DNA from: a virus
Lineage: Duplodnaviria > Heunggongvirae > Uroviricota > Caudoviricetes
Length of the DNA: 64,000 bases
Strand: one strand, 5' to 3'
Virus record (IMG/VR): IMGVR_UViG_3300032116_000006
A model generated the notes under the pieces. It saw only the letters and a program-made list of their open reading frames with translations. It was not told the DNA's origin and did no database searches. Each line of letters starts with the position of its first letter. The first letter of the stretch is position 1. The position numbers and the translations under genes are program-made. This document shows, piece by piece, positions 8,599 through 55,172 of the stretch.

Positions 8599-8623
8599 AC
8601 CCCACTTGGTCAACAGGTGGGGT
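8599..8623 (+). terminator. GC-rich hairpin downstream of the gp32-like gene (weak terminator candidate)
   Basis: ACCCCAC-11nt-GTGGGGT stem-loop followed by ATTATTAT. It is unusually GC-rich for this genome. Confidence 0.3.
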
Positions 8624-8647: not shown

Positions 8648-9025
8648 ATGAAAATCTCAACAACACATAAAGAATTTTCAGATCGCTTAAATGACCAAAC
8701 TGCTCTAGAATATCCCGAACATTTTCTTGGACCTAATTGGAAAGATGTATTGAACTTCTGGATTTATTTGGATACTTTGAGTGTTGAAGATTTTAGATTA
8801 ATTATTAATCGTTTTTGGGATGTATGTGCAGATGCTAGAGTTTCTGCTAGGGACAAGGCCTTTAAAGCTGCTGAAGCTACTATAGGTAATGATTATACAA
8901 ATATGGCTTTGTCTGCCGCTGCCGCTGCCGATGGCCCTGCTGGGTCTTCTTATGCAACTCTTGATCTCATTGGTTCTCATAAGCTAGAGTCTCTTAAGTT
9001 TCTTCCTTTGTTTTTAACGAAATGA
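8648..9025 (+). CDS. MKISTTHK-family paralog 1 (array 1)
   Basis: Conserved N-terminus MKISTTHKEFSDRLNDQTALEYPEHFLGPNWKDVLNFWIYLDTLS and C-terminus ATLDLIGSHKLESLKFLPLFLTK. The track ORF starts at a TTG at 8606, but the family-conserved ATG is at 8648. Confidence 0.7.
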   Translation: MKISTTHKEFSDRLNDQTALEYPEHFLGPNWKDVLNFWIYLDTLSVEDFRLIINRFWDVCADARVSARDKAFKAAEATIGNDYTNMALSAAAAADGPAGSSYATLDLIGSHKLESLKFLPLFLTK

Positions 9026-9426
9026 AAATCTCTAAAACACATCAAAAATTTGAATATCTGTTAAGATATAGTGATCATCACGTCCGTCGTCGCCAAACTA
9101 CTCTAGAATACCCTGAACTATTTCTTGGACCCAATTGGAAAAATGTCCTGAACTTCTGGATTTATTTGGATACTTTGAGTGATGAAAAGCTTAATTTAAG
9201 TGATGAAAAGCTTAATTTAATTGATAGGCTCTATTCGTCTTTAGATGATTTGGGGACCTTAAAGATATTTTCTTGGAAAGCTGCTAAAGATACTATAGAT
9301 AATGAATATGCAGATGCAGCTTGGTGGGCCACTCCTACAATTGTATATGGTTATGCAACTCTTGAACTCATCGCTTCACAAGAGCTTAAGTCTCTTAAGT
9401 TTCTTCCTTTGTTTTTAACGAAATGA
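9022..9426 (+). CDS. MKISTTHK-family paralog 2
   Basis: Same conserved termini. The core contains the in-frame tandem duplication SDEKLNLSDEKLNL. ATGA overlap with paralog 1. Confidence 0.7.
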   Translation: MKISKTHQKFEYLLRYSDHHVRRRQTTLEYPELFLGPNWKNVLNFWIYLDTLSDEKLNLSDEKLNLIDRLYSSLDDLGTLKIFSWKAAKDTIDNEYADAAWWATPTIVYGYATLELIASQELKSLKFLPLFLTK

Positions 9427-9788
9427 AAATCTCTAAAACACATAAAGAATTTGCAGATGATTTAAAAGACCAAACTGCTCTAGAATACCCTGAACGATTT
9501 CTAGGACCCAATTGGAAGAATGTCCTGAACTTCTGGATTTACTTGGATACTTTGAGTGATGAAGATTTTGATATAGTTACTAAGCGTTATTTGGATTTAG
9601 ATGCAGATGCTAGAGTTTCTGCTTGGGACAATGCCTTTAAAGCTACTGAAGCTACTATATGTGATGATTATGTATATGTAATTTGGTACTCTGCCGGTAT
9701 AGATGCATCTGTTTATGCAACCCTTGAACTCATCGCTTCACATAAGCTTGAGACTCTCAATTTTCTTCCACTGTTTCTAACCCCATGA
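9423..9788 (+). CDS. MKISTTHK-family paralog 3
   Basis: Conserved termini. Core of the 'DARVSA.DNAFKA.EATI' subtype. Confidence 0.7.
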   Translation: MKISKTHKEFADDLKDQTALEYPERFLGPNWKNVLNFWIYLDTLSDEDFDIVTKRYLDLDADARVSAWDNAFKATEATICDDYVYVIWYSAGIDASVYATLELIASHKLETLNFLPLFLTP

Positions 9789-10150
9789 AAATCTCCACCG
9801 CCCATCAAAAATTTGCAGATCGGTTAAATAACCAAACTGCTCTAGAATACCCTGAACTTTATCTAGGACCCAATTGGAAGGATGTATTGAACTTCTGGTT
9901 GTACTTGGATACTTTGAGTCGTGAAGATTTTAGGTTACTTAATAAGCGTTATTATGCTTTAGAAGAAGATGCTAGAGTTTCTGCTAGAGACAATGCTTTT
10001 AAAGCTGCTGAAGCTACTATAGTTCACGAATATGGAAATGTAGCTTGGTTTGTAACACCTATATATGTATCTAGTCATGCAACCCTTGAACTCATTGGTT
10101 CTCATAATCTAGAATCTCTTAAGTTTCTTCCTTTGTTTTTAACGAAATGA
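9785..10150 (+). CDS. MKISTTHK-family paralog 4
   Basis: Conserved termini. 'DARVSARDNAFKAAEATI' subtype. Confidence 0.7.
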   Translation: MKISTAHQKFADRLNNQTALEYPELYLGPNWKDVLNFWLYLDTLSREDFRLLNKRYYALEEDARVSARDNAFKAAEATIVHEYGNVAWFVTPIYVSSHATLELIGSHNLESLKFLPLFLTK

Positions 10151-10515
10151 AAATCTCAACAACACATCAACAATTTGCAGATCGTTTAAGAAACAAAAGA
10201 GCCATAAAACATCCAGAAGAATTTCTAGGTAAAAATTGGAAAGATGTTTTGAACTTTTGGATCTTTATAGATACTTTGAATGAAGATCAGTGGAAGAGTA
10301 TTAAAGATGCTCATTATTCTTTAAGACTCCATGAATGTAATCTTGCTATTGATGCTGCTATTGATGCTGCTTGGCTTGCTGCAGGCGCCGGTGGATGCGA
10401 TGCTGCTTTGTTTACTTCTGGTTATGCTGCTTGCGAAATTATAGGTTCTCATATACTTAAAGAACAAGGTAAATCTTTAGTCTCCTTTCCACTATACTTA
10501 AAATTTTCTCAATAA
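10147..10515 (+). CDS. MKISTTHK-family paralog 5 (divergent)
   Basis: N-terminus MKISTTHQQFADRL and NWKDVLNFWIFIDTL retained. C-terminus diverged (CEIIGSHILKEQGKSLVSFPLYL). Confidence 0.6.
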   Translation: MKISTTHQQFADRLRNKRAIKHPEEFLGKNWKDVLNFWIFIDTLNEDQWKSIKDAHYSLRLHECNLAIDAAIDAAWLAAGAGGCDAALFTSGYAACEIIGSHILKEQGKSLVSFPLYLKFSQ

Positions 10516-12856: not shown

Positions 12857-13468
12857 TTATAATGGAATGAAGATTGGTAGAAAGGTTGGAATCTGTAAAA
12901 AGTATTCAAGCTCATGCGGCTTTATTCTATAAAACTTACTTTGAAGTCCACTATACAAATAAGTTCTATGGACACTTTCAACATATTCAGGTGCTCTTTC
13001 CCAGTGAAAATTGAAGCCTTTAAAATACACTGGATGTATTGAATTTAACATAATAACCGGAAATACATCATAATATTTACCCTTTGTCTTGGCAATATAC
13101 TTAAAGGTATAGATTCCATGAAGATCCATTGCCTCTTCAGCTCTGCCCATTTTACGCAGAAGCTCTAGAATAAGATTAAAGTATTGCGGAGGAGATAAGC
13201 CCGGTGGCATCTTTTCAACAAAATTTTTAATTGCATAGAACTCATCTGCTTCTTCTTTAAGCTCTTCAACTTGTCTAATAATTGATCTAGGTTCTTCTTG
13301 ACCAGAAGCCTTTAATCTATTCGTAATTGTCTTTAGTTGATCTGAGAGCCGCTGAAGTCTTATTTCACTTGCTTTACCTAATCTTGAAAAAAATCCTTTA
13401 AGAGCTTGCATTGTGCCAAAAGCAGCTTTCGCGATGTTGCTCATTTTTCTTGGAAATTTCATAGCCAC
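12857..13468 (-). CDS. hypothetical protein, 203 aa
   Basis: ORF in the minus-strand block. Confidence 0.5.
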   Translation of the reverse strand: MAMKFPRKMSNIAKAAFGTMQALKGFFSRLGKASEIRLQRLSDQLKTITNRLKASGQEEPRSIIRQVEELKEEADEFYAIKNFVEKMPPGLSPPQYFNLILELLRKMGRAEEAMDLHGIYTFKYIAKTKGKYYDVFPVIMLNSIHPVYFKGFNFHWERAPEYVESVHRTYLYSGLQSKFYRIKPHELEYFLQIPTFLPIFIPL

Positions 13469-13908
13469 AGCTCCTTTTCAGTTACGAGTTTGAATATAAA
13501 TCCATGGTCTATACAAAATCTTTGAGCTGCTTCCCATTTGGCTAAATTTTTCGCATAAGTTTTAGTTTCAGTAATATATGTTTTACTTCTTTTTCTAGGT
13601 GATGGTTTCGGTGGCATAGTTTGCCTTTTAGGTTTTATTTCAAGAATATACTTCTTTATTTCTCCAGATTGTTCCTTTATCTCTACAAATAAATCTGGAA
13701 AATATCTTCTTATTTTTTTAGTTGTTGGGTCAAAATATTTAATTTGAATAGATTCACTGCTCCATGAAAGAATATCTGGCTGTAAATCACACCAATGAAA
13801 AGCCTTTAATTCATAGCTACTTCTATAAACTATATTTCTAATATCTCCAATGTATTTTTGTGGATTTACTGGATTAAAGAAATTTTGTATATAATTCTTT
13901 TCTGCCAC
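13459..13908 (-). CDS. hypothetical protein, 149 aa
   Basis: ORF with an apparent GTG start. First gene of the minus-strand block, reading away from a short divergent region. Confidence 0.5.
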   Translation of the reverse strand: MAEKNYIQNFFNPVNPQKYIGDIRNIVYRSSYELKAFHWCDLQPDILSWSSESIQIKYFDPTTKKIRRYFPDLFVEIKEQSGEIKKYILEIKPKRQTMPPKPSPRKRSKTYITETKTYAKNLAKWEAAQRFCIDHGFIFKLVTEKELWL

Positions 13909-15528: not shown

Positions 15529-17364
15529 ATGGCACGCTCCAATCCAAGAAAAAAGAATCTTCCTGATCTTGATACCGTCTTAAAAGAGTTGAGAGAGGAA
15601 AATAAACAAAAGCAACCTCAGGTAGAAAATACCCCCCAACAAACTCAACAAAAAAGTCCAGGAAAATATTCATCTCCTCTAGTAAGACCATCAAGCAGTA
15701 AAAATTGTTGCAATTGCTGCAAAGATATGCTAGCAGTATTGAGCACTATCAATGACTCTGCAACAAAAATTTTATCTGCCCTTAAGGCCGAACATCTTCT
15801 AGATAAAAAGACTGCAGAAAAATTTAAAAAAGATCAGGAAGAGAATGAGCGTAGAGAAAAAGAGAATCTCTTAGAATCTTCAGGAAGAAAATTATCAACT
15901 TCATTAAAAAGGGCTGTTGCACCTTTAACAAATGTATTAGACTCAATTTTCAAATTTCTTTTATTTACATTAGCTGGACGAGTTGTAGGTAAAATTCTCA
16001 AGTGGTTTGCAGATCCTTCAAATGAAAGAAAAGTAAAGTCATTAACTAGATTTCTTAGAGATTGGTGGCCAGCAATACTTGGCGCCTTTGTTTTATTTGG
16101 AACTAGATTTGGAGCTGCAATTAGATCAACAGTAAGAATGGCAATTTCAACCATTCTTTATCTTAAGAAGATTGGTATTCCAGGTATCATTGCTGGTTTA
16201 AAGAAATTTGGTAAATTTGGTCTAATTGCTGGTGGAGTTACTGGAGCAGCTTTTATTGCTAATAAACTTTTAAATCCTGATAAAAAAGAAGATAAACAAT
16301 CAGATAATCCAAATACAAATAAAGAACCAGAGAGATCTACAACAACTCCACCATTAAAAATGGCTGGAGGAGGATTAGTTCCTAGATTGAGCATAATGTT
16401 CCCGGAGGAAAGACATGTAGATGAGATAAGTTATGCTGAGGGTGGTCCAATTGATAATGCAAGTGGCATTTCAATTACTGGAGCTGGCCCAGATACTCAG
16501 TTAATAGCAGCTCAACCTGGAGAAATAGTTATTTCAAAGGCTGCAGTAGATAAATTTGGGGCAGATACATTTTTAAGAATGAATCTCGCTGCCGGTGCAA
16601 CAAATAAGCCAAAGTTTGCTGATAATATTCAATTGGCAAAGCAGGGTGGTATGGTTGGTAAAATGTCACCACCACCTTCTCCTAATAATCAAAATTTTAA
16701 TATAGCTGCTCCAAATCTTACTTTTCCTGTTAATAATTCATTTTCTCAGCGCAGAGGAAATTCAAAAGTTTCCTTCAATATTCCACCACCAAATCAAAAG
16801 ATTAAAAATTCTCAAATTAACTATAATTTAGCAAATTCATCATTTCCACGGATAAGTTTGGATAATCATAGTCAGAGTAATAAAAACTATGACTCAAGAA
16901 CTTTGTCTAGTAAATATAATTTAATGTCTCCAAATTTATCACAAGATAAATTTACAAATTATAATTCAAACCGATACAAACTTGTATCAAACAATTCAAC
17001 AGAAGAGCCTAGACAAACTTCTAGAAATTCTCCCATGCAAATGGCTAAAATGGGTGGAAGAGTATTGGCTAGAAATAAACCTCAGCAATATTCAGCATCT
17101 TATGGACTAAAAACCGAAGAACCACCGATAACTTTCAATATAAAGACTCATTTAGCATCAAAACCTGAAACAATAACTGCGCCTAGACCTAGAATTGCAA
17201 GAACTATAAACATTTCAGAACTTCCAGCTATTGATCTAAGAGCGAATAAAATAGTTAATAATCCTCAGGCTCAGTCAGAAGTTCCAGATTTTTCTGCAAT
17301 TCCAAGATTATCTGATCGTTATGGTGATAATGGAACTCTTGAAATATATGGAATTGAATTATAA
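15529..17364 (+). CDS. large virion-associated protein, 611 aa (glycine-motif protein, possible internal/tape-measure-like protein)
   Basis: N-terminal coiled-coil/charged region with a CC-x-CC cluster, then a hydrophobic segment. Repeated short motifs MAGGGLV, AEGGPI, AKQGGMVGK, MAKMGGRV. Asn/Ser-rich low-complexity C-terminus. Confidence 0.55.
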   Translation: MARSNPRKKNLPDLDTVLKELREENKQKQPQVENTPQQTQQKSPGKYSSPLVRPSSSKNCCNCCKDMLAVLSTINDSATKILSALKAEHLLDKKTAEKFKKDQEENERREKENLLESSGRKLSTSLKRAVAPLTNVLDSIFKFLLFTLAGRVVGKILKWFADPSNERKVKSLTRFLRDWWPAILGAFVLFGTRFGAAIRSTVRMAISTILYLKKIGIPGIIAGLKKFGKFGLIAGGVTGAAFIANKLLNPDKKEDKQSDNPNTNKEPERSTTTPPLKMAGGGLVPRLSIMFPEERHVDEISYAEGGPIDNASGISITGAGPDTQLIAAQPGEIVISKAAVDKFGADTFLRMNLAAGATNKPKFADNIQLAKQGGMVGKMSPPPSPNNQNFNIAAPNLTFPVNNSFSQRRGNSKVSFNIPPPNQKIKNSQINYNLANSSFPRISLDNHSQSNKNYDSRTLSSKYNLMSPNLSQDKFTNYNSNRYKLVSNNSTEEPRQTSRNSPMQMAKMGGRVLARNKPQQYSASYGLKTEEPPITFNIKTHLASKPETITAPRPRIARTINISELPAIDLRANKIVNNPQAQSEVPDFSAIPRLSDRYGDNGTLEIYGIEL

Positions 17365-23577: not shown

Positions 23578-24159
23578 ATGAGCACTAAAAAATTATCAAC
23601 AATTCGTTATGGAAATAAAGATGCTGAATTAAAATTTGGCCATCTTCATTCCGATGGAAAAATTTCAGCATTTATTGTAAGAAGTGGAACTGATCCTAAT
23701 CATTATATTTCCATGGATTCTGAAGGAGCCCCACATAGAAAACATGGAACAATTTGCAGATCAACAGGTGCTTTTCAAATAAAAGCAGGAGATAATGTAA
23801 AATCCACTGGTATTGAAGAAAATATTGGGGTTTATATTGAAGCTGTTGATGGTGATATTGTTCTTAATGCCAGAAATGGAAGAGTTAGAATTATTGGAGA
23901 AAATATTGATCTCATTGCGAGAGGCGCAGATGGACAAAATGGTAACATAAGTATTGATGCAAATGAGAAGGTAATTATAAATGCCTCAAGCGTTTCTATT
24001 AATTCAAAAGTCTCAACGCGAATTGTATCAGAAAAAAGAGTTGAAATGATTGGTAAAGCTATACTTAACTGTTATGGTGGTTTAATTGATTTTGCAGATG
24101 GATCAACAAAAATTAATGGCTCTAAAGGTGGTTCAACATTTGAGGATTTTTTTAAATGA
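23578..24159 (+). CDS. hypothetical structural protein, 193 aa
   Basis: ORF 2 nt after the previous stop. Confidence 0.5.
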   Translation: MSTKKLSTIRYGNKDAELKFGHLHSDGKISAFIVRSGTDPNHYISMDSEGAPHRKHGTICRSTGAFQIKAGDNVKSTGIEENIGVYIEAVDGDIVLNARNGRVRIIGENIDLIARGADGQNGNISIDANEKVIINASSVSINSKVSTRIVSEKRVEMIGKAILNCYGGLIDFADGSTKINGSKGGSTFEDFFK

Positions 24160-24782
24160 AAGTTCCTGATTTTTATGTTGGTAAAAGACTATTTGTTGGA
24201 GATGGTGAACCAATTGCTCTAGGCCTCGGTCCAACAGAAGTACGAGGTTCAGCTTACATTGAAGGTCCACTTCTAGTGGGGGATGCAACAAAATTTCCAA
24301 CAATTACTGCAGCCTTAATGGTTGCCCCGCAAATAAATTCAGATGTAAAAACTCCAGCTTTTTGGTCTGCTTATTTTCATGGCGGCGTGCGTGTTAAAGG
24401 AACAATAATTGCTGATACTATTGCTGCAACTCAATCTAAACCTTTTATCATTGATCATCCAACAAAACCAGATAAAAAACTGGTGCATGTTGCACTAGAG
24501 GGTCCAGAGAATGGAGTTTATGTAAGGGGTAGATTAACAGATTCTTCAATTATTGAGCTACCAGAATATTGGAAAAATTTAGTAGATGAAAAAACAATTA
24601 CAGTAAATTTGCAAACAATTGGAATTGAGCAGCAATTAATTGTAGAAGACATTAAAAGCAATCAAATTTTTGTTCGTAGCAATATAAGCTTAAATATTGA
24701 TTGTTTTTATCATGTCTATGGGACAAGAAAAGATATAGATAAACTTAAAGTTGAGGTAAATCCAGAAGATTATGGCCTTTGA
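24156..24782 (+). CDS. hypothetical protein, 208 aa (tandem paralog A)
   Basis: Shares about 35-40% identity over ~110 aa with the next ORF: DHPTKPDKKLVHVALEGPENGVYVRGRL...LPEYWKNL...IDCFYHVYGTRKDIDKLKVEVN. Confidence 0.55.
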   Translation: MKVPDFYVGKRLFVGDGEPIALGLGPTEVRGSAYIEGPLLVGDATKFPTITAALMVAPQINSDVKTPAFWSAYFHGGVRVKGTIIADTIAATQSKPFIIDHPTKPDKKLVHVALEGPENGVYVRGRLTDSSIIELPEYWKNLVDEKTITVNLQTIGIEQQLIVEDIKSNQIFVRSNISLNIDCFYHVYGTRKDIDKLKVEVNPEDYGL

Positions 24783-25464
24783 ATACAATAAAAACTTTGG
24801 AGCATTCATTCGCAAAAAATATGGTTATCCTATAGAAGATTATGAAGTAGATCCAAATTCTTTAGATTTTGGTCTTGAGTATAATATAAATGTTGCAGCA
24901 GTTTGGGTTGGGAATTCTCCAATGCAATATGCTTACTGTGATTTAACGAGTGATACTTCTTTAACATTAAGTCACTCTTCTGGTTCATTAACCGAATTTA
25001 TACTTAATGCAAATAACCTTAATATAAATTCAAGTGCAAAAATTTCATTAAATTCACCCATTGTAGAATGTTCAACTGAAATTAAAGCACCTCTAGGAAC
25101 TTTTATTAATCTTTCGGCTCCATATAAGATGTTTGATATCAAACATCCATCAAAAGAAAATATGAGACTTAGACATGCCTGCCTTGAGGGTCCTGAAATT
25201 TCAGTTTTCATTAAAGGCAGATTACAAGGTAAAGATACAATTACTCTTCCAGAATATTGGAAAGAATTAATTGATCTTGAAAGTATCAATGTAAGTCTTA
25301 CACAAATTGGAAGAAATCAGGACTTATTTGTAGTTTCAATTAATGATAAAGAAATAAAAATTTCCTCAAATTTAACTAACTTTATAGATTGCTTCTACAC
25401 AATTATGGCCACAAGAAAAGATGTTGAAAAATTGGAGGTTGAGGTAAATGAGTACACGCCCTGA
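24772..25464 (+). CDS. hypothetical protein, 230 aa (tandem paralog B)
   Basis: KHPSKENMRLRHACLEGPEISVFIKGRL...LPEYWKEL...IDCFYTIMATRKDVEKLEVEVN, paralogous to 24156..24782. Confidence 0.55.
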   Translation: MAFEYNKNFGAFIRKKYGYPIEDYEVDPNSLDFGLEYNINVAAVWVGNSPMQYAYCDLTSDTSLTLSHSSGSLTEFILNANNLNINSSAKISLNSPIVECSTEIKAPLGTFINLSAPYKMFDIKHPSKENMRLRHACLEGPEISVFIKGRLQGKDTITLPEYWKELIDLESINVSLTQIGRNQDLFVVSINDKEIKISSNLTNFIDCFYTIMATRKDVEKLEVEVNEYTP

Positions 25465-25937: not shown

Positions 25938-26996
25938 ATGGAAGCCACTTTAAATGAATTCATGTCTGATACTCCAGTTTCTTTCAATTTAGGTACACCT
26001 GAACTTGCGCAGTCTATCACAAATCATTTTATCACCAGAAGATATCTGAACGGTGGTAGCTCACATTTAAAGACTTTGAAAATTGAATATGATTTGCAAA
26101 ATCACGATCCCCAACAGCTTATTGATTTGTTTGTAAATATTGGATATAAAGTGATAGGTTGCCTAAGCACTGACTCATTATTATATAATGAACATAATTT
26201 AATTTATACTCGGTTCTTACGTGGTGGTTATTCTAATATTAGTATTCATGGTGATAAGACTAATTTTGATGAAATTGAAAATCTTATTTTATCAAAATTC
26301 AACAAGTGGGATGGCAACAATAAATCTAAAATAAAATGGTGTTTTCTCAATGATTGTGGTAAGATTGAGTATCTAGAATCAAATTTAGAGGAAAAAAATC
26401 CACCCTTCACAGAAATGTATCCATTTCTTAATGGTGAAAGTCTTCATGATTATTATGAGCGATATAACAATTCTTCTGCATCTATTCTCCTTTTGCAGGG
26501 TCCACCCGGTACTGGTAAAACTACATTTATTCGGGGGTTACTACAGCATCTTAAAAAGAGTGCATTATTGTCTTATGATGATGCAATCTTAAAAAGTGAT
26601 AATTTTTTGAATATTTTCATTAAGGATAATAATATAAATTTTCTAGTTTTTGAAGATGCTGATGCTTATCTGACCTCTAGAGAATCTGGTAATAAGGTGA
26701 TTCATAAATTTCTCAATGCTGGTGATGGTCTCATTTCTAAATCTAATAAGAAAATTATCTTCACTACAAATCTTCAAAGTATTACCGATATTGATTCGGC
26801 ACTTACTCGGCCAGGAAGGTGTCATGATATTTTACAATTTCGTAGTCTCACTACAGATGAATCTATTAAAGTTGCCAGCATTTGTAAAATCGAAATTAAA
26901 TTACCAGAAAAAGAATATACAATTGCAGAAATATTTAATACACAAACCAATACTGAGAAGAAAGTAATCCGAAATATTGGGTTTGGCAATCCATGA
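25938..26996 (+). CDS. AAA+ ATPase (classic-clade-like), 352 aa
   Basis: Walker A LLQGPPGTGKTT, Walker B FLVFEDADAY, sensor-1-like FTTN, arginine-finger region RPGRCHD. About 190-aa N-terminal domain. Confidence 0.75.
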   Translation: MEATLNEFMSDTPVSFNLGTPELAQSITNHFITRRYLNGGSSHLKTLKIEYDLQNHDPQQLIDLFVNIGYKVIGCLSTDSLLYNEHNLIYTRFLRGGYSNISIHGDKTNFDEIENLILSKFNKWDGNNKSKIKWCFLNDCGKIEYLESNLEEKNPPFTEMYPFLNGESLHDYYERYNNSSASILLLQGPPGTGKTTFIRGLLQHLKKSALLSYDDAILKSDNFLNIFIKDNNINFLVFEDADAYLTSRESGNKVIHKFLNAGDGLISKSNKKIIFTTNLQSITDIDSALTRPGRCHDILQFRSLTTDESIKVASICKIEIKLPEKEYTIAEIFNTQTNTEKKVIRNIGFGNP

Positions 26997-27352
26997 AAAT
27001 ATCCAACACCCATCAAAGTTTTGCAGATAATTTTAATCTCCAAACTGCTCTATATTATCCTGAACAATTCTTGGGTCCCAATTGGAAAGATGTACTGAAC
27101 TTCTGGCTCTATTTGGATACTTTACATTATGAAGTTCTTAGGTTAATTGACATGAGATATTATACTTTAGGGGAAATAGGGACATTAAAGAAACTTTCTT
27201 GGAATGTTGCTAAAGATACTATAGGTCTTAAATATGCAGATGCAGCTTGGCACGCCAGCCCAACACTTGCAGATGGTTGTGCAACCTGTGAACTTATCGG
27301 CTCACACAATCTTAAGTCTTTGAATTTTCTTCCCTTGTTTTTGAATCTATGA
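26993..27352 (+). CDS. MKISTTHK-family paralog 6 (array 2)
   Basis: MKISNTHQSFADNF...NWKDVLNFWLYLDTL...CELIGSHNLKSLNFLPLFLNL. ATGA overlap with the AAA ATPase stop. Confidence 0.7.
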   Translation: MKISNTHQSFADNFNLQTALYYPEQFLGPNWKDVLNFWLYLDTLHYEVLRLIDMRYYTLGEIGTLKKLSWNVAKDTIGLKYADAAWHASPTLADGCATCELIGSHNLKSLNFLPLFLNL

Positions 27353-27708
27353 AAATCTCTACAACACATCAAAAATTTGCAAATGATTTAAAAGACCAAA
27401 CTGCTCTAGAATACCCTGAATATTTTATAGGTCCCAATTGGAAAGATGTTCTGAACTTCTGGATTTATTTGGACACTTTGAGCGGTGAAAAGCGTAAGAT
27501 AATTAGCAATCGCTTTGATAATCTTGAAGAGCTGGGCCGATTAACAAGTATTACTCTGAAAGCTGCTGAAGATACTATAGGTGTTAAATATGTAGATGCA
27601 GCTTGGAGTGCCCCTCCATCATTTGCATCTGCTTATGCAACCTGTGAACTTATCAATTCACATAATCTAGAGTCTTTTAATTTTCTTCCTTTGTTTTTGA
27701 ATCCATGA
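27349..27708 (+). CDS. MKISTTHK-family paralog 7
   Basis: Conserved termini. 'AAEDTIGVKYVDAAW' core subtype. Confidence 0.7.
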   Translation: MKISTTHQKFANDLKDQTALEYPEYFIGPNWKDVLNFWIYLDTLSGEKRKIISNRFDNLEELGRLTSITLKAAEDTIGVKYVDAAWSAPPSFASAYATCELINSHNLESFNFLPLFLNP

Positions 27709-28118
27709 AAATCTCTAAAATACATAAAAAATTTGCAGATCATTTAGATGATCAAGATGCCCTAAAATATCCTGAAGAATTTCTAGGTACTAATTGGAAA
27801 GATGTTTTGAACTTCTGGATTTATTTGGACACTTTGAGTGATGGAGAACATAATTTAATTAATGAACATAATTTAATTAATGAACATTATTACAATTTAA
27901 ATTGTATTCATGTAAAAGAAGCCAATAAGAAAGCTACTAGACGTATTATAGGTTACTATTGTGCAAATGCAGCTTGGAATGCCACTCCTACAGTTGCATC
28001 TGCTTATGCAACCATTGAACTCATTGGTTCTCATAATCTAGAGTCTATTAATTTACTTTCATTGTTTTATCAATCAGAAACTTTTAAGTGTCACTTCAAA
28101 AACTGGACTAGCACCTAA
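27705..28118 (+). CDS. MKISTTHK-family paralog 8
   Basis: Conserved N-terminus. Core contains the in-frame 21-bp tandem duplication EHNLINEHNLINEH. C-terminus extended and diverged. Confidence 0.6.
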   Translation: MKISKIHKKFADHLDDQDALKYPEEFLGTNWKDVLNFWIYLDTLSDGEHNLINEHNLINEHYYNLNCIHVKEANKKATRRIIGYYCANAAWNATPTVASAYATIELIGSHNLESINLLSLFYQSETFKCHFKNWTST

Positions 28119-28143: not shown

Positions 28144-29205
28144 ATGATAAAAGTTAATTCACTCAAAGACATGACAAATCTTCCATATGATGCTGTAGTT
28201 TTTATTGGCAGATTTAATCCACCTCATCATGAACATTTAAACATCATTTGTCGCGCTTTTGAAACTCTTTCACATAAGGTAATTATAATTATTGGTTCAG
28301 CAGGAAAGCCAAGATCATATAAGAATCCCTTTTTTGAAAACGAAAGGGAAAACCTCATCATTACAAGCCTGCTACATGATTATGGTCATCATACAACACA
28401 GACCGAAAATTTTCATATCTTCCATAGCATTGATTACATTTATGATAACAAAAAATGGGCAGATGAAATCAAAAAGCAAGTAAAAACGGTAACCGCAGAA
28501 ACTGACAAAATTGCAATCATTGGTCACCGAAAAGATCAATCATCATTCTATCTTGACCTATTTCCCGAGTATGATTTGATTGAACAACCAATGACTCAAA
28601 ATCTTAGTTCCACAGATATCCGAAAACTCTACTTCAAAGAATCCCCCAATCTCAACTTTCTTTCGGGTGTTATTACAGATAGTGTAAGTGAGTTTTTGAA
28701 AGAATTTTCAGAAACTGAAGATTTTCAGATGTTGGTGAGAGAAAGGGAGTATGAGGAAAATTATAAGAAGCCCTTTTCACTTTTACCATATCCTCCAGTA
28801 TTTGTAACTGCAGATGCTGTAGTTTTTTCTGGGAATCAAATTCTTTTGATTGAACGAGCCAACGAACCTGGAAAGGGTCTATTGGCTCTTCCTGGTGGAT
28901 TTTTGGATGCTAACTCGGATGCTTCACTCCAAGATGCAATGTTTCGTGAACTTAAAGAAGAAACTGGTCTTGAATTAACTGAAAAAGATATCACAGAATT
29001 CAATGTATTTGATGCAATTGATAGAAGCTCAAGAGGCCGAGTGATCACTATGGCATATACTTTAAATGTTCCAGATCGGTTTTTACATCAAGTCATAGCA
29101 TCTACAGATGCAAAAACTGTAGATTGGTATCCTATCTCAAGTCTAAACCGAAGACAGTTTTTTGAAGATCATTTTGAAATTATTTCTCAATGTGGAGGGT
29201 TTTGA
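28144..29205 (+). CDS. nadM: bifunctional NMN adenylyltransferase / Nudix hydrolase (NadM-Nudix, NatV-like)
   Basis: N-terminal nucleotidyltransferase (H/T)xGH-type motif GRFNPPHHEH. C-terminal Nudix box GGFLDANSDASLQDAMFRELKEETGL (REx2EE). Same architecture as KVP40 NatV. Confidence 0.8.
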   Translation: MIKVNSLKDMTNLPYDAVVFIGRFNPPHHEHLNIICRAFETLSHKVIIIIGSAGKPRSYKNPFFENERENLIITSLLHDYGHHTTQTENFHIFHSIDYIYDNKKWADEIKKQVKTVTAETDKIAIIGHRKDQSSFYLDLFPEYDLIEQPMTQNLSSTDIRKLYFKESPNLNFLSGVITDSVSEFLKEFSETEDFQMLVREREYEENYKKPFSLLPYPPVFVTADAVVFSGNQILLIERANEPGKGLLALPGGFLDANSDASLQDAMFRELKEETGLELTEKDITEFNVFDAIDRSSRGRVITMAYTLNVPDRFLHQVIASTDAKTVDWYPISSLNRRQFFEDHFEIISQCGGF

Positions 29206-30688: not shown

Positions 30689-32065
30689 ATGACAATTTCT
30701 AAATCAATCGTCTGCAACACAGATCTTTACAAATATTCTCAGCCTTATCAATATCCTAAAAATACCCAAGCTATTTTTTCGTATATTGCAAGTCGCGGTG
30801 GAGATTGGGATCAAAGTGTTTTCTTTGGACTTCAAATGTTCCTAAAAGAATATCTTGAACCGAGAGTAACTACTGAAGATATTGATTATGCTCAAGAATT
30901 GATTCCAGCACATGGGCTTCCTTTTTATAGAGATTTGTGGGATTATATTGTTGATGCACATGACGGAAAACTGCCACTAAAAATCAGAGCAGTTCCTGAA
31001 GGAACTGTAGTTCCAACTAAAAATGTTCTAGTTACAATTGAACCAACAGACCAAAACTGCTGGTGGCTTGTAGATCACGTTGAATCTCCTCTTCTTAGGG
31101 GAGTCTGGTATCCCACTACCGTTTGCACTAATTCTTATTTGAGCAAAGCAATCATCAAAGAGTATCTAGAAGAAACTGGATCACCAGAATTGCTATCAAC
31201 TCGTTTGAGTGATTTTGGATTAAGGGGAGTTTCATCTTTTGAATCTTCTGGAATTGGAGGTGTTGCACATCTAGTTCATTTTGATGGAACTGATAATGTA
31301 AATGGATCTCAATATGCTAGACATTTTTATAATAGAAAGTTGACTGGGCTTGAATCCATTCCAGCAATGCAACATTCTACAGTAACATCTTGGGGTAGAG
31401 AAGCTGAAGTTGACTCATATCGCAATATGTTGAGTCTATTTGGGTTTCCTAAAGCTGTTATTGCCTGCGTTAGTGATAGTTACAACATTTATGAGGCATG
31501 TGAAAATCTATGGGGAGACCAATTACGTGAAGAAGTTATTAATTCTGGTGCAATTGTTGTTGTTAGATCTGATAGTGGGGATCCAACAGTCGTTCTACTT
31601 AAATGTCTAGAAATTCTTGATAAGAAATTTGGACACACGGTAAACTCTAAAGGTTATAAAGTCTTGAATAATGTGCGCCTCTTTCAAAGTGATGGAATCA
31701 AACATGATCTAATTTCTAGGATTCTTTATCTTTTCAAGGCCGCTGGGTTCTCTACTGATAACATTGCCTTTGGTCAAGGTGGTGCACTACTTCAACAACT
31801 TGATCGGGATACTCAAAAAGAAGCAATGAAAGGTTCTGCAATTATGATTAATGGCATTTGGTATGAAATGTATAAGGATCCAATTACAGATCCAGGTAAA
31901 AGCTCTTTCAGGGGTCGCTTAGATTTATTCCAAACTGATGATGGAGTTTTCACTGCGAAAGAAGGTTCTTTCAATTACCCATCAGCTCTAAGAAATGTTT
32001 TTGAAAATGGTGATCTTTATCATGTTGAAGATATGGATACCATTAAGGCTAGGGTCACCTTTTAA
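30689..32065 (+). CDS. nadV: nicotinamide phosphoribosyltransferase (NAMPT/NadV)
   Basis: 458 aa. N-terminal TDLYKYSQ and overall length and architecture of NadV. Pairs with nadM-Nudix as in the KVP40 NAD salvage pathway. Confidence 0.85.
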   Translation: MTISKSIVCNTDLYKYSQPYQYPKNTQAIFSYIASRGGDWDQSVFFGLQMFLKEYLEPRVTTEDIDYAQELIPAHGLPFYRDLWDYIVDAHDGKLPLKIRAVPEGTVVPTKNVLVTIEPTDQNCWWLVDHVESPLLRGVWYPTTVCTNSYLSKAIIKEYLEETGSPELLSTRLSDFGLRGVSSFESSGIGGVAHLVHFDGTDNVNGSQYARHFYNRKLTGLESIPAMQHSTVTSWGREAEVDSYRNMLSLFGFPKAVIACVSDSYNIYEACENLWGDQLREEVINSGAIVVVRSDSGDPTVVLLKCLEILDKKFGHTVNSKGYKVLNNVRLFQSDGIKHDLISRILYLFKAAGFSTDNIAFGQGGALLQQLDRDTQKEAMKGSAIMINGIWYEMYKDPITDPGKSSFRGRLDLFQTDDGVFTAKEGSFNYPSALRNVFENGDLYHVEDMDTIKARVTF

Positions 32066-33590: not shown

Positions 33591-34289
33591 ATGTTCATCT
33601 CATTTGCTCTAGCGCACACCCTTAGCACTGCACCAGTACAAATTCCATTTCTTGTCACTGAGCCTGTAACAATTGCTCGTAGTTATGGGAGCCGCTCTAG
33701 TTCTTTTCGCTCTAGTTCTTTTCGCTCAAGTTATTCTGCACCATCTCGTATTCGTGTAAACTCTACATCTGTTCAAAGGGTTTCACCTCCAAGGACAATT
33801 AATATCTCTAAACCAGCCAATTCATCTTTAACACCAAAACTTGGGCCAACTCTACAGAAAACAACCTTGAAAAGGTTGGCAGATAAAAATGGGATGGTTC
33901 CAATTACTAAATCTGCTCCACCAAAACCAGTTCTAGTTTCGGCACCAAAAACAACTCCACCTAAAACTATTATTTCTGCTCCTCGTCCAAAAAATACAAT
34001 TGCTGCACCATCAACCTCAAGGTATTATCCACAGCCATCAAATTCACCAGTAATTATTCATCAAGATTCATCATTTTCAAATCCTTGGATGTGGATGTAT
34101 CTTATGGATAACCGAAACCAAGCTCCTCAAATTTCAACAAATGCTGCACTTAGAAATTTGAATGGTGATACTGTCAGCACCAAAATTGTGACACGGGAAG
34201 AGAGAAATCCACTTAAGGATTTTCTTCTTATTTCTCTTGGTCTTGGTTGTGGTATTCCTGTTGGGTATCTTTTCTTAAACAAAAAATGA
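33591..34289 (+). CDS. Pro/Ser/Thr-rich low-complexity protein with C-terminal transmembrane anchor, 232 aa
   Basis: N-terminal hydrophobic segment. Repeats SSSFRSSSFRSSYS and PPKP/APKTTPPK. Single C-terminal TM (LLISLGLGCGIPVGYLFL). Confidence 0.5.
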   Translation: MFISFALAHTLSTAPVQIPFLVTEPVTIARSYGSRSSSFRSSSFRSSYSAPSRIRVNSTSVQRVSPPRTINISKPANSSLTPKLGPTLQKTTLKRLADKNGMVPITKSAPPKPVLVSAPKTTPPKTIISAPRPKNTIAAPSTSRYYPQPSNSPVIIHQDSSFSNPWMWMYLMDNRNQAPQISTNAALRNLNGDTVSTKIVTREERNPLKDFLLISLGLGCGIPVGYLFLNKK

Positions 34290-34332: not shown

Positions 34333-34416
34333 CGGCCTCTGATGGAATAGGTAGACATAGTGGACTTAAAATCCCCTGTCCGTAAGGGCGTAAGAGTTCG
34401 AGTCTCTTGGGGCCGA
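34333..34416 (+). tRNA. tRNA-Leu (anticodon TAA), class II with long variable arm; 3' CCA not encoded
   Basis: Manual fold. Acceptor CGGCCTC/GGGGCCG (7 bp, one GU). D-stem ATG/CAT. Anticodon stem GTGGA/TCCCC (one mismatch) with loop CTTAAAA. Variable arm ~15 nt. T-arm AAGAG-TTCGAGT-CTCTT. Discriminator A. Confidence 0.65.
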
Positions 34417-35658: not shown

Positions 35659-35672
35659 TTCATAAATAGTGC
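35659..35672 (+). promoter_or_regulatory. late-promoter-like box TCATAAATAGTGCA upstream of the 2044-aa gene
   Basis: ATAAATAG again, as at 13909. About 25 nt upstream of the in-frame ATG at 35696. Confidence 0.3.
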
Positions 35673-38600
35673 ATAAGTTATTTTATGCACTAAGAATGGG
35701 GTTATCAAGACTTAGCCAACTGTTATCAAATATAACCGGAAGAACTTTATATGTAAACCCTGATTCAATAGATGCAACAGATTCTATTGAAAATCGTGGC
35801 AATTCTCCAACAAGACCTTTTAATGGTCTAAACCGTGCAATCGCAGAAGCTGTAAGATTCTCATATCAAACTGGACCAAATAATGATAGATTTGCTAGAT
35901 GCACCATTATTCTTTCCCCTGGTTATCATAGAGTAACTAATCGCCCTGGATGGATTCCAGATGGTTCAAATAATTTCATATTAAGAAACGGAACAACTTC
36001 AAGTAATTTCTCTCAATGGGATATTAATACTAATTTTGATTTTAATTCAAGCAATAATGCACTCTATAAATTAAATTCAATACATGGTGGAATTTTTCTA
36101 CCTCGTGGTGTTAGCATTATTGGTCAAGATTATAGAAAAACTATAATTGTTCCAGATTATATTCCAAATCCTGAAAATGATTTAATTGAAAGATGTGGAG
36201 TTTTTCTTCTTACTGGTCAGAACTTTATTAATGAAATAACCATTGAAGACCCTTCAGAGAGTGTTTATATTGATTACACAAATAATAGATATTCTCCAAA
36301 ATTTTCACAACATAAATTAACAAACTTTGAAATGGCAGATGGTGTAAATCCAGTTGCCATAAATGATGGAATTATTGAATATTCATCTACTAGAACCGAT
36401 CTTCAAATGTATTATGAGAAGATCGGTCTAGTTTTTGGTGCATCTTCAGGTAGAGAAATAAAACCAGATTATCCCTCATCTTCAGTTGATATTCAACCAA
36501 GAATTGATGAATATAGAATTGTTGGTTCAAGAGGAAAGGAAGTCTTATTAAGTGCAATACAAGCTGGAAATGGTATTACCGCCACAACCACAATTACTGC
36601 AACTCTCTCAGAGCCTATTAATGATTTAGATGTAAATACTCCAATTAGAGTTCAAGGTGTTCCAGTTTCTGGATATGACGGCCAATTTATAATTAAACAA
36701 ATCATTAGTCCAACTCAAGTAGTTTATGAAGTTTCAGTTGCTCCAATAGTTGCAAATCCATCTTTAGCTTCATCAACTGCAACTTTAAATATTTCTGTTG
36801 ATACTATCACATCTTCTTCGCCTTATCTTTTTAATCTAGCAAGTAAAACTGTTTGGGGGAGAAATGGCCTTGATGTTGATGGCTCTAAAATTTCTGGCTT
36901 TAAGTCAGTTGTAGTAGCTCAATTTACTGGAATTGGCCTACAAAAAGATCCCAAAGCATTTGTAAAATATAATACAGCTTCTGGAATTTTTGAAGATTTT
37001 TCTGCTTCAGGTAACGAAAATATTCAAACATCTAGTAGAGCATATTATAAACCCTCTTATGAAAACTTTCATATTAAGGCGAGTAATGATGGTTATGTTC
37101 AAGTAGTTTCAGTATTTGCTATCGGTTATGCCCATCAATTTTTATCAGAAAGTGGTGCAGATCAATCCATCAATGCTTCAAACTCTAATTTTGGTTCAAA
37201 AGCCTTAGTTTCTCGTGGATTTAGAAGTTCAGCATTTGTTCGTGATGATGTTGGTTATATTACACACATTATTCCACCGAAAGAAATTAAAACTACTGAA
37301 AATGCAATCACATACGATTCAATTGATGTTGGCATTACAACCTCAGTTGGACTAGCATCTCGCTTGTATTTTTATAATAAAAAATCTCTCGCTTCTCCCC
37401 CAGATTCTGTCATTGAAGGATTTAGAATTGGTGCAAACCCTTATGATTCATTAAGAGTTGTTATTAATTCTAGAGAATATTTTTCAACAATTGTGATGCC
37501 AAACTCGGCTAAAACGGGTGAAAAATCATATTCTGTTGGTAGAAGTAATGCTGGAATCAATAGTATCACTTCAGATACATTTACATTAACTGAAACTCAT
37601 ACATTTGTATCTGGGGAATCTGTAAGAGTTATTAGTGAAACTGGGCAACTTCCAAATAGTCTAAATTCTGGATTGTATTATGTCATTACTACTGGTAATC
37701 CAAATGAAATTAAACTTGCTCAAACCTTCACAGATGCCTTAACAGGAACAGAACTGTCTGTGAGCCCCTCTGGGGGGCCTCTGAGCATCGTTAGTCGGGT
37801 CTCAGACAAAGTGGCCGGAGAAATTGGACATCCTATTCAATTTGATCCTAATAATGGTTGGTATATCACTGTAGCAGTTTCTTTTGATAATCTTTTAAAT
37901 AGCATCTATTATAGTTTGAATACAGTTTCAAGAATAGCGACTCAAAGAACATATTTTTATCGTAGAAATGACAATCGTAGTTTGGGTGATACAATATATA
38001 AGCTTCGTTATGTTATTCCATCATCTGTTGATGCGGCTAGACCTCCTCTTGACGGCTATATTATTCAAGAGACTAATAGTACAATTGGCAAATCAAATAC
38101 TGAAGTTGAGTCACAATTTAATCCATCAACAACTACATTAAATTCAACATTCCAACTAAGAAACCAAAAGTTGATTGCCAATGCAAGTTGGTCAGCAAAT
38201 ACTGCAACTTTTGAATGTGAAGTTTCTCATAAACTCTCCATTGGTTCTGAAGTTGAAATAAAAAATGTAAAGAGCACTAATAATACAACTAGCCTAGATA
38301 ACTTAGGTTATAATGGAACATTCATTGTTACTGAGATTGTTAATGGAAAAATATTCAAAGTCATCCTTGAAACTAATCCTGGAACATTTACAAACAACAC
38401 ATCACAAAGAACCGTAGATTCACCTTATTTTATAAGAAAAAAATATAATAATATCTTCTACATTTATAAAGTTGAAGAGACTAAAAAACATATTCCCGGT
38501 GTTCAAGATGGAGTTTATTATCTTACTATACTGAATTCGTCAAATTATCCTGCAGTAGAACCCTTTAGGAATAAAGGATATTCTCAACCAATTCAAAATC

Positions 38601-41600
38601 TTTATCCTCAGAAGAATAGGGACAATCCAATTTCTGATCCAAAGGAAACGGCTTGTTATACTCTTCCTGATCCTCTTGGGCAGGTTGTTGTAAATAATCC
38701 ACAATACTCACTCACAAAAGAAACTTTACAAAGAGTTTTTCTTGAGAATGCTATTGGTATTGGTGTCACAAATATCATTTCAAATAGTGCTGGAACCGCT
38801 CACACAATTTATACCACATTAGATCATGGACTTGATCCAATTACTTCAGTTTCAATTACGTCTCCTGGAAATGGTTATGGAATTGGATCTGGGAGTAATG
38901 AAACTTACTATAATGCTAAATTAGTTAATATTTCTTCATCCGGTGAAAATGCAACAGCGAGTATTATTGTAAATTCAAGTGGATCTATCTCTAGTATTCG
39001 TATTATGGATGGTGGCAGCAATTATAATGTTGGAGATAGATTAAGTGTGGTTGGAATTGCAACGACAACTGGATATACAGTTGGAATTGTAAGTGTTGCA
39101 TCAATTTATAGTCATGTTGGAGAAACAATAAAGGTCAATAAAACTTTAGACCGATACAATACCAGTTATAGAATTACTGGAATTACAAGTAGTAGAGCGA
39201 TTCAAGTAAGTTCTGCCTCTTCAATAATCTCTCCATCTATATCTGGAATTGGAAGTGTTTCAATTGGACAATGTTATGCTGAATTGACCGGAAAAGCCAT
39301 TGCAATCTCATCAGTCGTCCATTCATCTGGAATTGCAACTATAACAACAATTGATTCACATGATTTATACGTTGACAATAAAATTCTTTTTGGTGGATTT
39401 ACTGAAAGTCCATTTAATAGAGAGTTTTTAGTGAATGGTGTTGTTGGTCTCAATACATTTACAGTAGCTACAGGTAGTACAAATATTTCTGTATCTTTCA
39501 CTCAAACTCCATATGCCTATAGACAAGGTGCAGCTTCTAATGGTGGCTCTTATACTAATGACAATGAAGGTTTAAGAACTAGAATGATTCCTTTATATTC
39601 TGGAATCACTACAACTTTATCTGGAAACATTAATTCCACTATAACTACAATTAATGTTTCAAATGCAGTTAATTGTGGTCTAAAAATTGGAGACTATTTA
39701 CAAATTGATGAAGAATTTGTAAGAATTTCAACAACAGTTGTTTCCAATACCCTTACTGTTTTTCGTGGGGTTTTGGGTTCAAGAAGTTCTTCACATTCTT
39801 CTGGAGCTATTGTTTATAAGATTGGCATTGTTCCCATTGAACTTAGACGCAACTCTTTACTTCGGGCAAGTGCACATACATTTGAATATAATGGCTTTGG
39901 ATCTGGAAATTATTCATCAGCTCTACCAGATAGACAAGATAGAACCTTATCCCAACAGGAAGAATTATTAGCACAATCAACCAAAGAAAATGGCGGCATC
40001 GTTGTTTTTTCTGGGATGAATGCAAATGGTAGTTTTTATGTTGGAAATAAAAAAGTTAATTCTGCAACTGGAACCGAAGAAATTTTTGAGACTCCAATAC
40101 CTACTATTACTGGCGAAGATGTCAGTACATTAAGTGGTTACAATAATGTAAATACATTTGAAGCGACTATTAATCGCTCTCTGTTTGTTGAAGGTGGGGC
40201 TAACAAAAATCTTATTTCACAATTTGATGGACCCGTTGTTTTTAATAATAAAATAGTTTCAAATTCTGAAAGAGGATTTGAAGCATCTTCAATGCTATTA
40301 TATGGTCAAGGATTAACACCAAGAAATTATACAATTGGTTCATCTGAACCGAAATTATCTGGAAATCCTGGTGATGTTCAATATAATTCAGAGCCAATAA
40401 GTGGTGGATTTTTAGGTTGGGTCTATACCACAAATAATCGTTGGGAAAAATTTGGAAAAATCGGAAGCAGTGGATTATCTGTTGATAATAGTGTCGGAGT
40501 TTCTAGTAATGGCTCTTTTGTTGGACTTTCAACTCTTATTGACTTTAAGACAAGTGGAATTGTTCTGACTTCTTCATATGATTCAGTAAGCGGGATTACA
40601 ACATTAAATTTTTCTGGTGCTTCACCTTTAGGTAATAGTATTGGTATTTCAACTGGTTCTAATAATTTTGTTGGAATGGCAACTCAAATTAATTTTGTCG
40701 GTAGTCCAAATATTGATATAATTGGAACTGGTGGAACGGGAATTAATACAATAAGAGTCGGAATTTCATCTACTTCTTCAATATTAGCTTCAGGTTTCAT
40801 TAAAAGAGGTGCAACCGGAACCAATTTCTTAAAAGCTGATGGGTCAGATGCAACCATTACTTACAATGAGGTTACCAATGCCTTAGGTTATGTTCCTGCA
40901 AATTCAGGTTCAGTCTCTGGTGGTTCTGAAACTGGTAATTCAATTATTTTAGATCAATTATCATCTTTTAATGGAATTACTTCTACATTTGATTTAAAAC
41001 TTAATGGGAATCTTTTTGTTCCCCCTGGTGGACCTGCTAATTTAATTGTATCTCTTGGCGGAATTATTCAAAGGCCAGGAACTGATTATTTTATTCCTCA
41101 AAATGCTGGAATTAATACAAGCAAGATACAATTTACTGATGTACCTTTATCTGGTCTTTCACACTTTATTGTTAGTCTTGGTGGTCAAGGATCCCTATTA
41201 AGTAATGGATCTTGGAACTCTAAAGGAGATTTAGTTGTTGGTCTTACTGATAATAATGCAGGTATTTTAAGTGTTGGTGCTAATGGTCAGGTTCTTACCG
41301 TTGATAGTAATTCTCCAGTTGGAGTAGCTTGGACTGATGGCCCAAAAATAATTTTAGCTGGATCTCAAAATACAAGCAGTGGAAATTCAATTAGTTATAC
41401 AGACATTCCAAGCTGGGCTAAAAAAATTACAATATCATTTGAAGGGGTTGGTATTAATGGTTCTGGAGATATTCTAATTCAATTAGGAACTAATAGTATA
41501 ATAACTTCTGGATATGAATCAACAAGTTCAAAAGTTAGTACGGCTGTTGCAACAATAAATTCAACCAATGGATTCATTGTTGAGAGTGATGGTTTCACTG

Positions 41601-42724: not shown

Positions 42725-42825
42725 ATAACTTAAGTGACTTAAAGAACTTAAATACTCTTAAAGATTCTTAAGTTACTTAAATACTCTTAAGTTATTTAAA
42801 GATTCTTAAAGATACTTAAGTAACA
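42725..42825. repeat. CTTAAG/CTTAAA-rich iterated repeat cluster in the 516-bp divergent intergenic region
   Basis: Units such as ACTTAAATACTCTTAA and AAGATTCTTAA each occur twice. Many CTTAAG palindromes fall within ~100 bp. Confidence 0.6.
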
Positions 42826-55060: not shown

Positions 55061-55156
55061 ATGGAGAAAAAATTCAATCGGAAAAAGAATGAAACTAAAG
55101 GACACTTTATGGAGAAAAAATTCAATCGGAAAAAGAATGAAACTAAAGGACACTTT
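55061..55156 (+). repeat. 48-bp perfect tandem duplication (2 units: ATGGAGAAAAAATTCAATCGGAAAAAGAATGAAACTAAAGGACACTTT)
   Basis: Read directly: 55061..55108 is identical to 55109..55156. The unit ends with the dispersed GGACACTTT motif. Confidence 0.85.
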
Positions 55157-55172
55157 AATGACTGACACATTG
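55148..55172 (+). promoter_or_regulatory. dispersed upstream motif GGACACTTTAATGACTGACACATTG (copy a)
   Basis: Related copies at 55842..55867, 57401..57424, 59487..59510 and 63309..63329. All lie on the + strand 70-190 nt upstream of + strand start codons. Confidence 0.4.

Follow-up and report, generated by a model that had tools for sequence, protein, structure and literature searches.

A multigene family with constant ends and variable cores in an uncultured T4-like phage, probably diversified by recombination between copies and in-frame slippage

How does a phage come to carry many copies of one small gene that are alike at both ends and differ in the middle, and what might such a set of proteins do? 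The question is raised by a stretch of 64,000 nucleotides (nt) of viral DNA, hereafter the window, in which genes for proteins of about 120 amino acids (aa) recur. An earlier reading of the letters alone (the sequence-only reading) had described constant termini, modular cores and fresh in-frame duplications, and had taken cassette exchange plus slippage as signs of ongoing diversification. Our analysis supports, with a probability of about 0.8, a phage-specific multigene family whose diversity comes from recombination between copies, slippage and point substitution, with its ends under purifying selection. None of the libraries searched annotates the family, and nothing else in the stretches that we compared between near-identical strains is as rearranged.

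The phage and its gene family

The window has a G+C content of 33%. Its replication and baseplate genes are of the T4 type and include gp32, genes resembling gp59 and gp53, and the gene for a T4 baseplate protein. By gp32, the nearest cultured phages are Synechococcus phages B3 and B23, with an identity of only 50%. Several JGI and ENA samples contain metagenome contigs that match the DNA at 99.98–100% identity, and the contigs on which family proteins are recorded are about 249 kb long. The window thus belongs to an uncultured T4-like myophage of about that size.

Scanning with a motif and with an HMM of the family recovered 14 paralogues, the number implied by the sequence-only reading. All are on the plus strand, encode about 120 aa each and are full-length open reading frames (ORFs) with MKIS starts. 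They lie in six places (beginning at 8648 to 10147, 26993 to 27705, 48075 and 48437, 58726 and 59079, 60913, and 61865) and take up 8% of the window:

8648–9025 (+), array 1, paralogue 1: 125 aa counted from MKIS; subtype-1 core DARVSARDKAFKAAEATI; possible start at 8630 with a MEIATF leader
9022–9426 (+), array 1, paralogue 2: 134 aa; 21-bp duplication, 24-bp insertion and H>Q at a nearly invariant histidine
9423–9788 (+), array 1, paralogue 3: 121 aa; subtype-1 core
9785–10150 (+), array 1, paralogue 4: 121 aa; subtype-1 core; reference for the AF2 model
10147–10515 (+), array 1, paralogue 5: 122 aa; type B, with a C-terminal block 4 aa longer (ILKEQGKSL) and an Ala-rich core
26993–27352 (+), array 2, paralogue 1: 119 aa; subtype-2 core; start overlaps the stop of the upstream AAA-ATPase gene
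27349–27708 (+), array 2, paralogue 2: 119 aa
27705–28118 (+), array 2, paralogue 3: 137 aa; 18-bp duplication, C-terminal extension, and P>T and P>S at conserved prolines
48075–48440 (+), array 3, paralogue 1: 121 aa; subtype-1 core
48437–48808 (+), array 3, paralogue 2: 123 aa; GTG start; subtype-2-like core with a 3-aa insertion
58726–59082 (+), array 4, paralogue 1: 118 aa; subtype-2 core
59079–59450 (+), array 4, paralogue 2: 123 aa; hybrid core
60913–61272 (+), single paralogue downstream of a DEAD-box helicase gene: 119 aa
61865–62239 (+), the copy that diverges most: 124 aa; type B; family-HMM E value 1e-17

Neighbouring copies are joined by ATGA overlaps, and most copies are translationally coupled. 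Array 1 sits between gp32 and the gp53-like gene, and array 2 between an AAA ATPase gene and a Nmnat-Nudix gene. A strong terminator-like hairpin at 8599–8623 (+), between gp32 and the first paralogue, has a 10-bp stem with six G-C pairs and an A/T-rich tail (ATTATTATGG), so array 1 may be transcribed separately from gp32. A promoter scan of array 1 found sites no more often than in shuffled sequence.

The whole genome holds at least 25 copies, about 20 with the short C terminus and five with the C-terminal block that is 4 aa longer; in a related 243-kb phage it is this second type that has expanded. Together they occupy roughly 9 kb, or about 3–4% of the 249-kb genome. No other family in the window is comparably expanded: the only other paralogous pairs found are the genes starting at 24156 and 24772 and a weak, partial pair starting at 15529 and 17364. 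The former, adjacent ORFs at 24156–24782 and 24772–25464 (+) with 49% identity over 108 aa, are the only other clear duplication there.

Constant ends and a free core

We compared substitutions by the Nei–Gojobori method in 14 close paralogues, comprising the 12 closest copies of the window and two just past its end. Synonymous differences were similar along the gene (pS of 0.36, 0.33 and 0.40 in the N terminus, core and C terminus, with a saturation expectation of 0.65–0.73), whereas pN was 0.12, 0.44 and 0.18, so that elevated non-synonymous change is confined to the core. Because pS is equal in all segments, the ends are conserved by selection on the protein and not by homogenization of the DNA. 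The termini are thus held constant, as the sequence-only reading had said, by purifying selection. The core, with a pN/pS of about 1.3, appears to evolve at or above the neutral rate; in this AT-rich genome and by this method, such a ratio is compatible with full relaxation and is not proof of positive selection.

The core retains some pattern, in that its positions of low entropy are spaced i, i+3/4 and i+7 along the predicted helices. Presumably these positions form the buried face of each helix, with the variable positions on the other faces.

Core types and signs of exchange within the window

The two core subtypes proposed from the sequence both exist, but they are not discrete. A DARVSA..AEATI core is common to copies 8648, 9423, 9785 and 48075 (core clade at 78% bootstrap), and a looser L-x-W-K-A-A-K-D-T-I-G group is also present. 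Copy 59079 begins its core as subtype 1 and ends it as subtype 2, the opposite combination is seen in a sister-strain orthologue of 9022, and three copies (10147, 27705 and 61865) match neither subtype. All four half-motif combinations occur among the homologues, along with many other core types; the core types number more than two.

Do these patterns reflect exchange, or could old paralogues have drifted apart without it? The latter explanation posits ancient duplications with purified ends and drifting cores, the subtypes being two old clades. It would fit the similar pS across segments, which gives no sign of recent DNA homogenization, and the correlation between core and C-terminal distances (r = 0.48). 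The DARVSA-type motif is found also in a distant lineage of 243 kb, which makes the core types old, as this explanation would have it. The N-terminal and core distance matrices, however, are uncorrelated (Mantel r = −0.01). The separate segment trees proposed by the sequence-only reading are discordant: copies 9423 and 60913 form an N-terminal clade (77% bootstrap) that conflicts with the 78% core clade, and the N terminus of 9423 is nearest to that of 60913 (5% nt distance), at odds with its core. The trees are short and weakly resolved, the C-terminal one without any clade at 60% or above, and this low resolution leaves room for drift. The hybrid half-motif cores speak against it.

Rate heterogeneity along the gene confounds the tests for recombination within the window. 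With neighbourhoods of 3–20 sites, a PHI-type test gave z between −3.5 and −6.4, nearby informative sites being more compatible than distant ones; with the standard 100-nt window it was not significant (p = 0.47), significance appearing only with the shorter neighbourhoods. A Sawyer-type run test returned two globally significant fragments, which we discounted since its site permutation ignores the conserved N terminus. Exact in-register matches of at least 20 nt between paralogues (20–58 nt) occur only in the two conserved end blocks; these blocks therefore act as homology arms around the core.

Donor switching in a sister strain

Decisive for exchange is a sister strain, GROS21-1, whose flanks are about 92–97% identical to the window. 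Its family genes switch donor paralogue between tracts of 97–100% nt identity. One gene (H2) combines the N terminus of 27705, the core of 27349 (100% nt identity) and the C terminus of 27705/8648; another (H1) has the N terminus of 27349 and the remainder from 26993. In array 1, a 9022-like core is joined to the C terminus of 9423 (G1), and the orthologue of 10147 (G3) has a foreign N terminus on a 10147 body. The breakpoints fall in the NWKDVLNFW/LDTLS and AAW/YATLELIGSH blocks. Independent contigs carry other mosaics (P0045, P0023 and P0037).

Copy number also differs at orthologous slots (5 versus 3, 2 versus 1, 3 versus 2, and 4+4). Array 1, with five copies in the window and three in GROS21-1, is the most divergent spot across 19 kb of aligned DNA that is otherwise about 97% identical. 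Upstream of the helicase gene, two genes of the window (58726 and 59079) correspond to a single gene in the sister strain. This single gene carries the 5′ flank and N terminus of 58726, followed by the core, C terminus and 3′ flank of 59079, with the junction in the NWKDVLNFW/LDTLS block, and is the footprint of an unequal crossover. In the slot after the helicase, held by 60913 in the window, the sister-strain copy has an unrelated core. More distant syntenic phages carry two, or 4+4, copies around the same Nmnat-Nudix gene, compared with three in the window.

Donor switching between nearly identical tracts, a fusion matching on both flanks and differing copy numbers (5 versus 3 and 2 versus 1) go against divergence without exchange, which is already largely refuted and which we regard as improbable. 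The cassette exchange proposed from the sequence is borne out by the switching tracts, the fusion, the uncorrelated distances and the conflicting clades. Paralogy, copy-number differences between close relatives, evidence of exchange both statistical and direct, and non-synonymous change concentrated in the core mark this as a multigene family with birth-and-death evolution and interlocus recombination.

In-frame tandem duplications

The window copies carry these small in-frame changes:

9069–9092 (+), 24-bp in-frame insertion in copy 9022, N-terminal loop: about 8 aa (RYSDHHVR region) that neither the sister strain nor any other copy has
9178–9219 (+), perfect 21-bp in-frame tandem duplication in copy 9022: AGTGATGAAAAGCTTAATTTA, SDEKLNL twice, units 9178–9198 and 9199–9219, then a 5/6 partial ATTGAT
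10344–10371 (+), 12-bp in-frame repeat of 2.3 copies in copy 10147: AIDA AIDA
27846–27887 (+), perfect 18-bp in-frame tandem duplication of 2.33 copies in copy 27705: GAACATAATTTAATTAAT, EHNLIN twice plus EH, with 6-bp GAACAT microhomology at its bounds

The first duplication is as originally described, SDEKLNL twice and perfect, with an exact span of 9178–9219. The second is equally real, perfect and in frame, but its unit is 18 bp and not the 21 bp first given. The repeat in copy 10147 had not been reported; at its site, the sister strain has AWLA twice. Perfect 42-bp tandems cannot arise by chance. Three of the seven TRF loci scoring at least 50 lie in the 8% of the window that the family occupies, a roughly 9-fold enrichment with P of about 0.013 by our own binomial estimate from the TRF loci.

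Repeated gene families are a classic source of assembly error, and the sequence-only reading had allowed that the duplications might be sequencing or assembly artefacts; the same could be asked of the mosaic sister-strain genes, which come from one assembly each (most of the sister-strain evidence is from a single metagenome assembly, ERZ19571839). The exact 134-aa and 137-aa duplication-bearing proteins each occur in nine contigs, the places shown coming from several ENA and JGI assemblies, and the arrays and both duplications are reproduced base for base by different samples and assemblers. The longest exact repeat between paralogues, 58 nt, is shorter than the reads and the final k-mers, so that short reads span it, and each mosaic gene is an unbroken ORF with the flanks expected of its locus. 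An artefact is therefore very improbable, and for the window, identical in six assemblies, we reject it. The duplications are real and fixed in this population.

They are also derived. The sister-strain orthologue of 9022 (G2) has neither the 21-bp duplication nor the 24-bp insertion, a homologue with the 27705-type core (P0019) is missing the 18-bp duplication, and in an alignment of the window copies neither the 21-bp nor the 18-bp insertion is present in any other paralogue; both are thus recent gains. Microhomology flanks both, and other in-frame tandems occur in homologues (P0062, P0090, P0094, P0098 and P0119), recurring forms in family members being AAGDAGFY twice, ELIGSHR twice, a 20-aa unit twice, ARFA twice and AAWD twice. 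The flanking microhomology, the absence from orthologues and the similar tandems in homologues bear out slippage.

Whether such gains are adaptive is a separate matter. Both duplication-bearing copies deviate at conserved residues, so the duplications may be neutral or mark decay rather than adaptation. The tandems could be neutral or slightly deleterious lesions in redundant copies that are decaying: 9022 and 27705 score lowest of the type-A copies against the HMM, are changed at nearly invariant residues (H>Q in 9022, P>T and P>S in 27705) and, in the case of 9022, carry the additional 24-bp insertion and lower AF2 confidence at the duplication (pLDDT 69). However, both remain intact ORFs fixed in the population, the predicted fold of 9022 is kept (pTM 0.81), the deviations affect only 2–3 of 37 conserved columns (family median 2), and in-frame tandems recur in many homologues. 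We consider decay possible but on balance rather unlikely.

Change between strains, identity within the population

Across contigs from six assemblies, which represent one population, the arrays are 100% identical to the window; the cores are therefore not hypervariable within it. The proposed ongoing diversification holds over evolutionary time and between strains and does not extend to variation within the population.

This identity also bears on programmed variation of the core, by a diversity-generating retroelement or by phase-variable repeats, either of which would produce a superficially similar layout, with unvarying ends around a variable middle that contains tandem repeats. No reverse-transcriptase domain was found among precomputed Pfam hits to genes called in loci over about 1–33 kb and 38–64 kb of the window, nor in a sister-strain locus (L007) collinear with about 27–38.5 kb. 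The adenine share of core mismatches was at most 50% for any putative template, taking every ordered pair of cores, and every copy is a full ORF, with no non-coding template. With no reverse transcriptase found in these loci and no adenine bias, we rejected the retroelement. As for phase variation, the repeats have units of 12, 18 and 21 bp in 2–2.3 in-frame copies, the same in six assemblies, across which no change of repeat number switches a gene or its frame. As far as these data reach, programmed variation is very improbable.

A mechanism for core diversification

Recombination between copies, slippage and substitution, the reading that we favour, rests on the mosaic tracts, the crossover footprint, the copy-number differences, the derived and reproducible duplications and the selection pattern observed here. 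Purifying selection on the protein would hold the N-terminal ~45 aa and the C-terminal ~25 aa constant, while the three helices between them (residues ~46–98) would keep only their i/i+3–4/i+7 positions and elsewhere be free, or driven, to change. Homologous recombination between copies, by gene conversion and unequal crossover, would use the conserved end blocks as homology arms, swapping whole cores or sub-core patches and shifting copy number within fixed genomic slots. We infer that the phage's own T4-type machinery carries it out. Replication slippage at short direct repeats would add in-frame duplications of 12–60 bp at helix ends and in loops, and point substitution would proceed under relaxed or positive selection.

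The mechanism is conventional, known from viral multigene families and from segmental gene conversion; the family itself has no annotation and no structural match. It offers a clean natural example of short conserved coding blocks that let phage recombination machinery shuffle protein modules.

A predicted fold and a possible role

A set of 1.84 billion proteins yielded about 500 close homologues of the family, with 399 representatives at 50% identity, and every named source is a metagenome. Searches of Pfam, PHROGs, NCBIfam, PADLOC and PDB sequences and a pattern scan of GTDB genomes gave no match; neither did a tblastn search of 50,697 phage records, nor was any cultured-phage match found, and a literature search for the samples or for a description of the family returned nothing relevant. 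The AF2 model of copy 9785 has nine helices and a pLDDT of 96.9; the fold is predicted with confidence and has no solved relative. Some longer homologues are fused to other domains (one RHH and one weak FlbD-like match), but these give no consistent clue. A match to a 1518-aa homologue looked like a low-complexity artefact and was set aside, and the idea of a DNA mimic was rejected, with isoelectric points ranging from 4.4 to 9.1.

Array 2 lies immediately upstream of one of two genes that form a Nampt + Nmnat pair of the NARP2 type, with four small unannotated ORFs between them:

28144–29205 (+), Nmnat-Nudix gene (PF01467 + PF00293), paired with the Nampt gene
30689–32065 (+), Nampt gene (PF18127 + PF04095)

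A pair of this kind constitutes an NAD+-reconstitution anti-defence pathway that counters NAD-depleting defences (bioRxiv 10.1101/2024.02.11.579819). Homology of the family to a known anti-defence family was looked for and not found, and this adjacency is the only link to what may be an anti-defence role.

On the basis of the selection pattern, the plastic copy number, the small size of the proteins, the early and metabolic gene neighbours and the position of array 2 beside the NARP2-kind pair, we tentatively propose, as an idea that has the odds against it, that the family is a repertoire of binding proteins for host takeover or anti-defence. The variable helical surface would then be the binding surface. 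More speculatively, and doubtful as a whole, the repertoire could be germline-encoded and combinatorial: a constant scaffold would dock to one common partner or effector, and the three exposed helices, reshuffled among ~25 copies, would each recognize a different host protein, for example a defence or toxin protein. Were this so, recombination among copies and between co-infecting phages would create new specificities, and the family would be the phage equivalent of adaptor families whose recognition modules vary, on a fold without a solved relative. Arms-race genes tend toward such patterns, which makes the family a testable candidate for a new host-takeover or anti-defence class in uncultured T4-like phages.

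Comparison with known systems

The polymorphic internal-protein (ip) loci of T-even phages, reportedly described by Repoila, Tetart, Bouet and Krisch in 1994, offer one parallel. One internal protein, IPI*, acts against the GmrSD restriction system, an arms-race role that has been demonstrated. As in the ip loci, small proteins of a T4-type phage, putatively early or packaged in the case of the family, are encoded in plastic regions between conserved modules, a conserved terminal segment accompanies a highly variable body, and gene content differs between close relatives. The family differs in having no sequence or profile similarity to ip proteins (Pfam, PHROG and tblastn in 50,697 phage records). 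Its two conserved ends (~45 and 25 aa) lie within one confidently predicted domain, whereas ip proteins have a capsid-targeting peptide of ~10 aa. The L/I-x-E protease site of the T-even proteins is not apparent by eye in the family's N-terminal consensus, and the copy number, at least 25, is far above that of the ip loci.

Amplification of poxvirus K3L and the MGF360/505 families of African swine fever virus (ASFV), known as genomic accordions, resemble the family in arrays that expand and contract by unequal recombination, in copy numbers that differ between strains and in copies that diverge under host-driven selection. Those are unrelated proteins of eukaryotic double-stranded DNA viruses; here the copies occupy several fixed phage slots, and exchange of internal segments is prominent.

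Antigenic variation at Neisseria pilE/pilS and Borrelia vlsE resembles the family in the exchange itself, with conserved flanks serving as homology arms that move variable cassettes between paralogues. Those systems, however, have silent, promoterless partial cassettes, a single expression site and high-frequency switching within a clone, whereas the phage family consists of complete ORFs in invariant arrays. Diversity-generating retroelements share the constant scaffold and localized variable region in a phage protein, but their hallmarks (reverse transcriptase, template repeat and adenine-specific pattern) were not found for the family. Immunity proteins of polymorphic toxins, for example PIM1 (PDB 8ows_A), are also among the closest known systems.

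Other features of the window

Directly downstream of array 3, at 48817–49965 (+), is a class-I aminoacyl-tRNA synthetase-like gene of 382 aa, with a PF00579 (tRNA-synt_1b) match and weak TyrRS C-terminal and S4 matches; to our knowledge such a gene is unusual for a phage. Near it are a gene of the CCA-adding/poly(A) polymerase family (52012–52776), RNA ligase genes and a tRNA-Leu(TAA) at 34333–34416. A 2044-aa ORF at 35669–41803 (+) has no Pfam match on record; both the sister strain and a related 243-kb phage conserve it, at 2044 and 2034 aa respectively.

A second hotspot of divergence, with 60–70% identity and indels, lies at 15750–16250 in the ORF at 15529–17364 (611 aa; 565 aa in the sister strain), a structural gene beside the baseplate genes that possibly encodes a host-recognition protein. 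Also among the baseplate genes, at 13459–13908 (−), is a 149-aa ORF with a Tn7 TnsA-like N-terminal endonuclease domain (PF08722), which may be a homing or restriction-like nuclease.

Tandem repeats are present outside the family as well. The strongest in the window, a perfect 48-bp unit in two copies at 55061–55157 (TRF score 194), is at a site with no called gene in matching contigs. A 15-bp unit repeated 2.7 times (96% matches) lies at 33693–33732 inside the ORF at 33591–34289, and a degenerate array of 10/19/29 bp, apparently intergenic, occupies 42729–42821, upstream of the ORF at 42835–43575.
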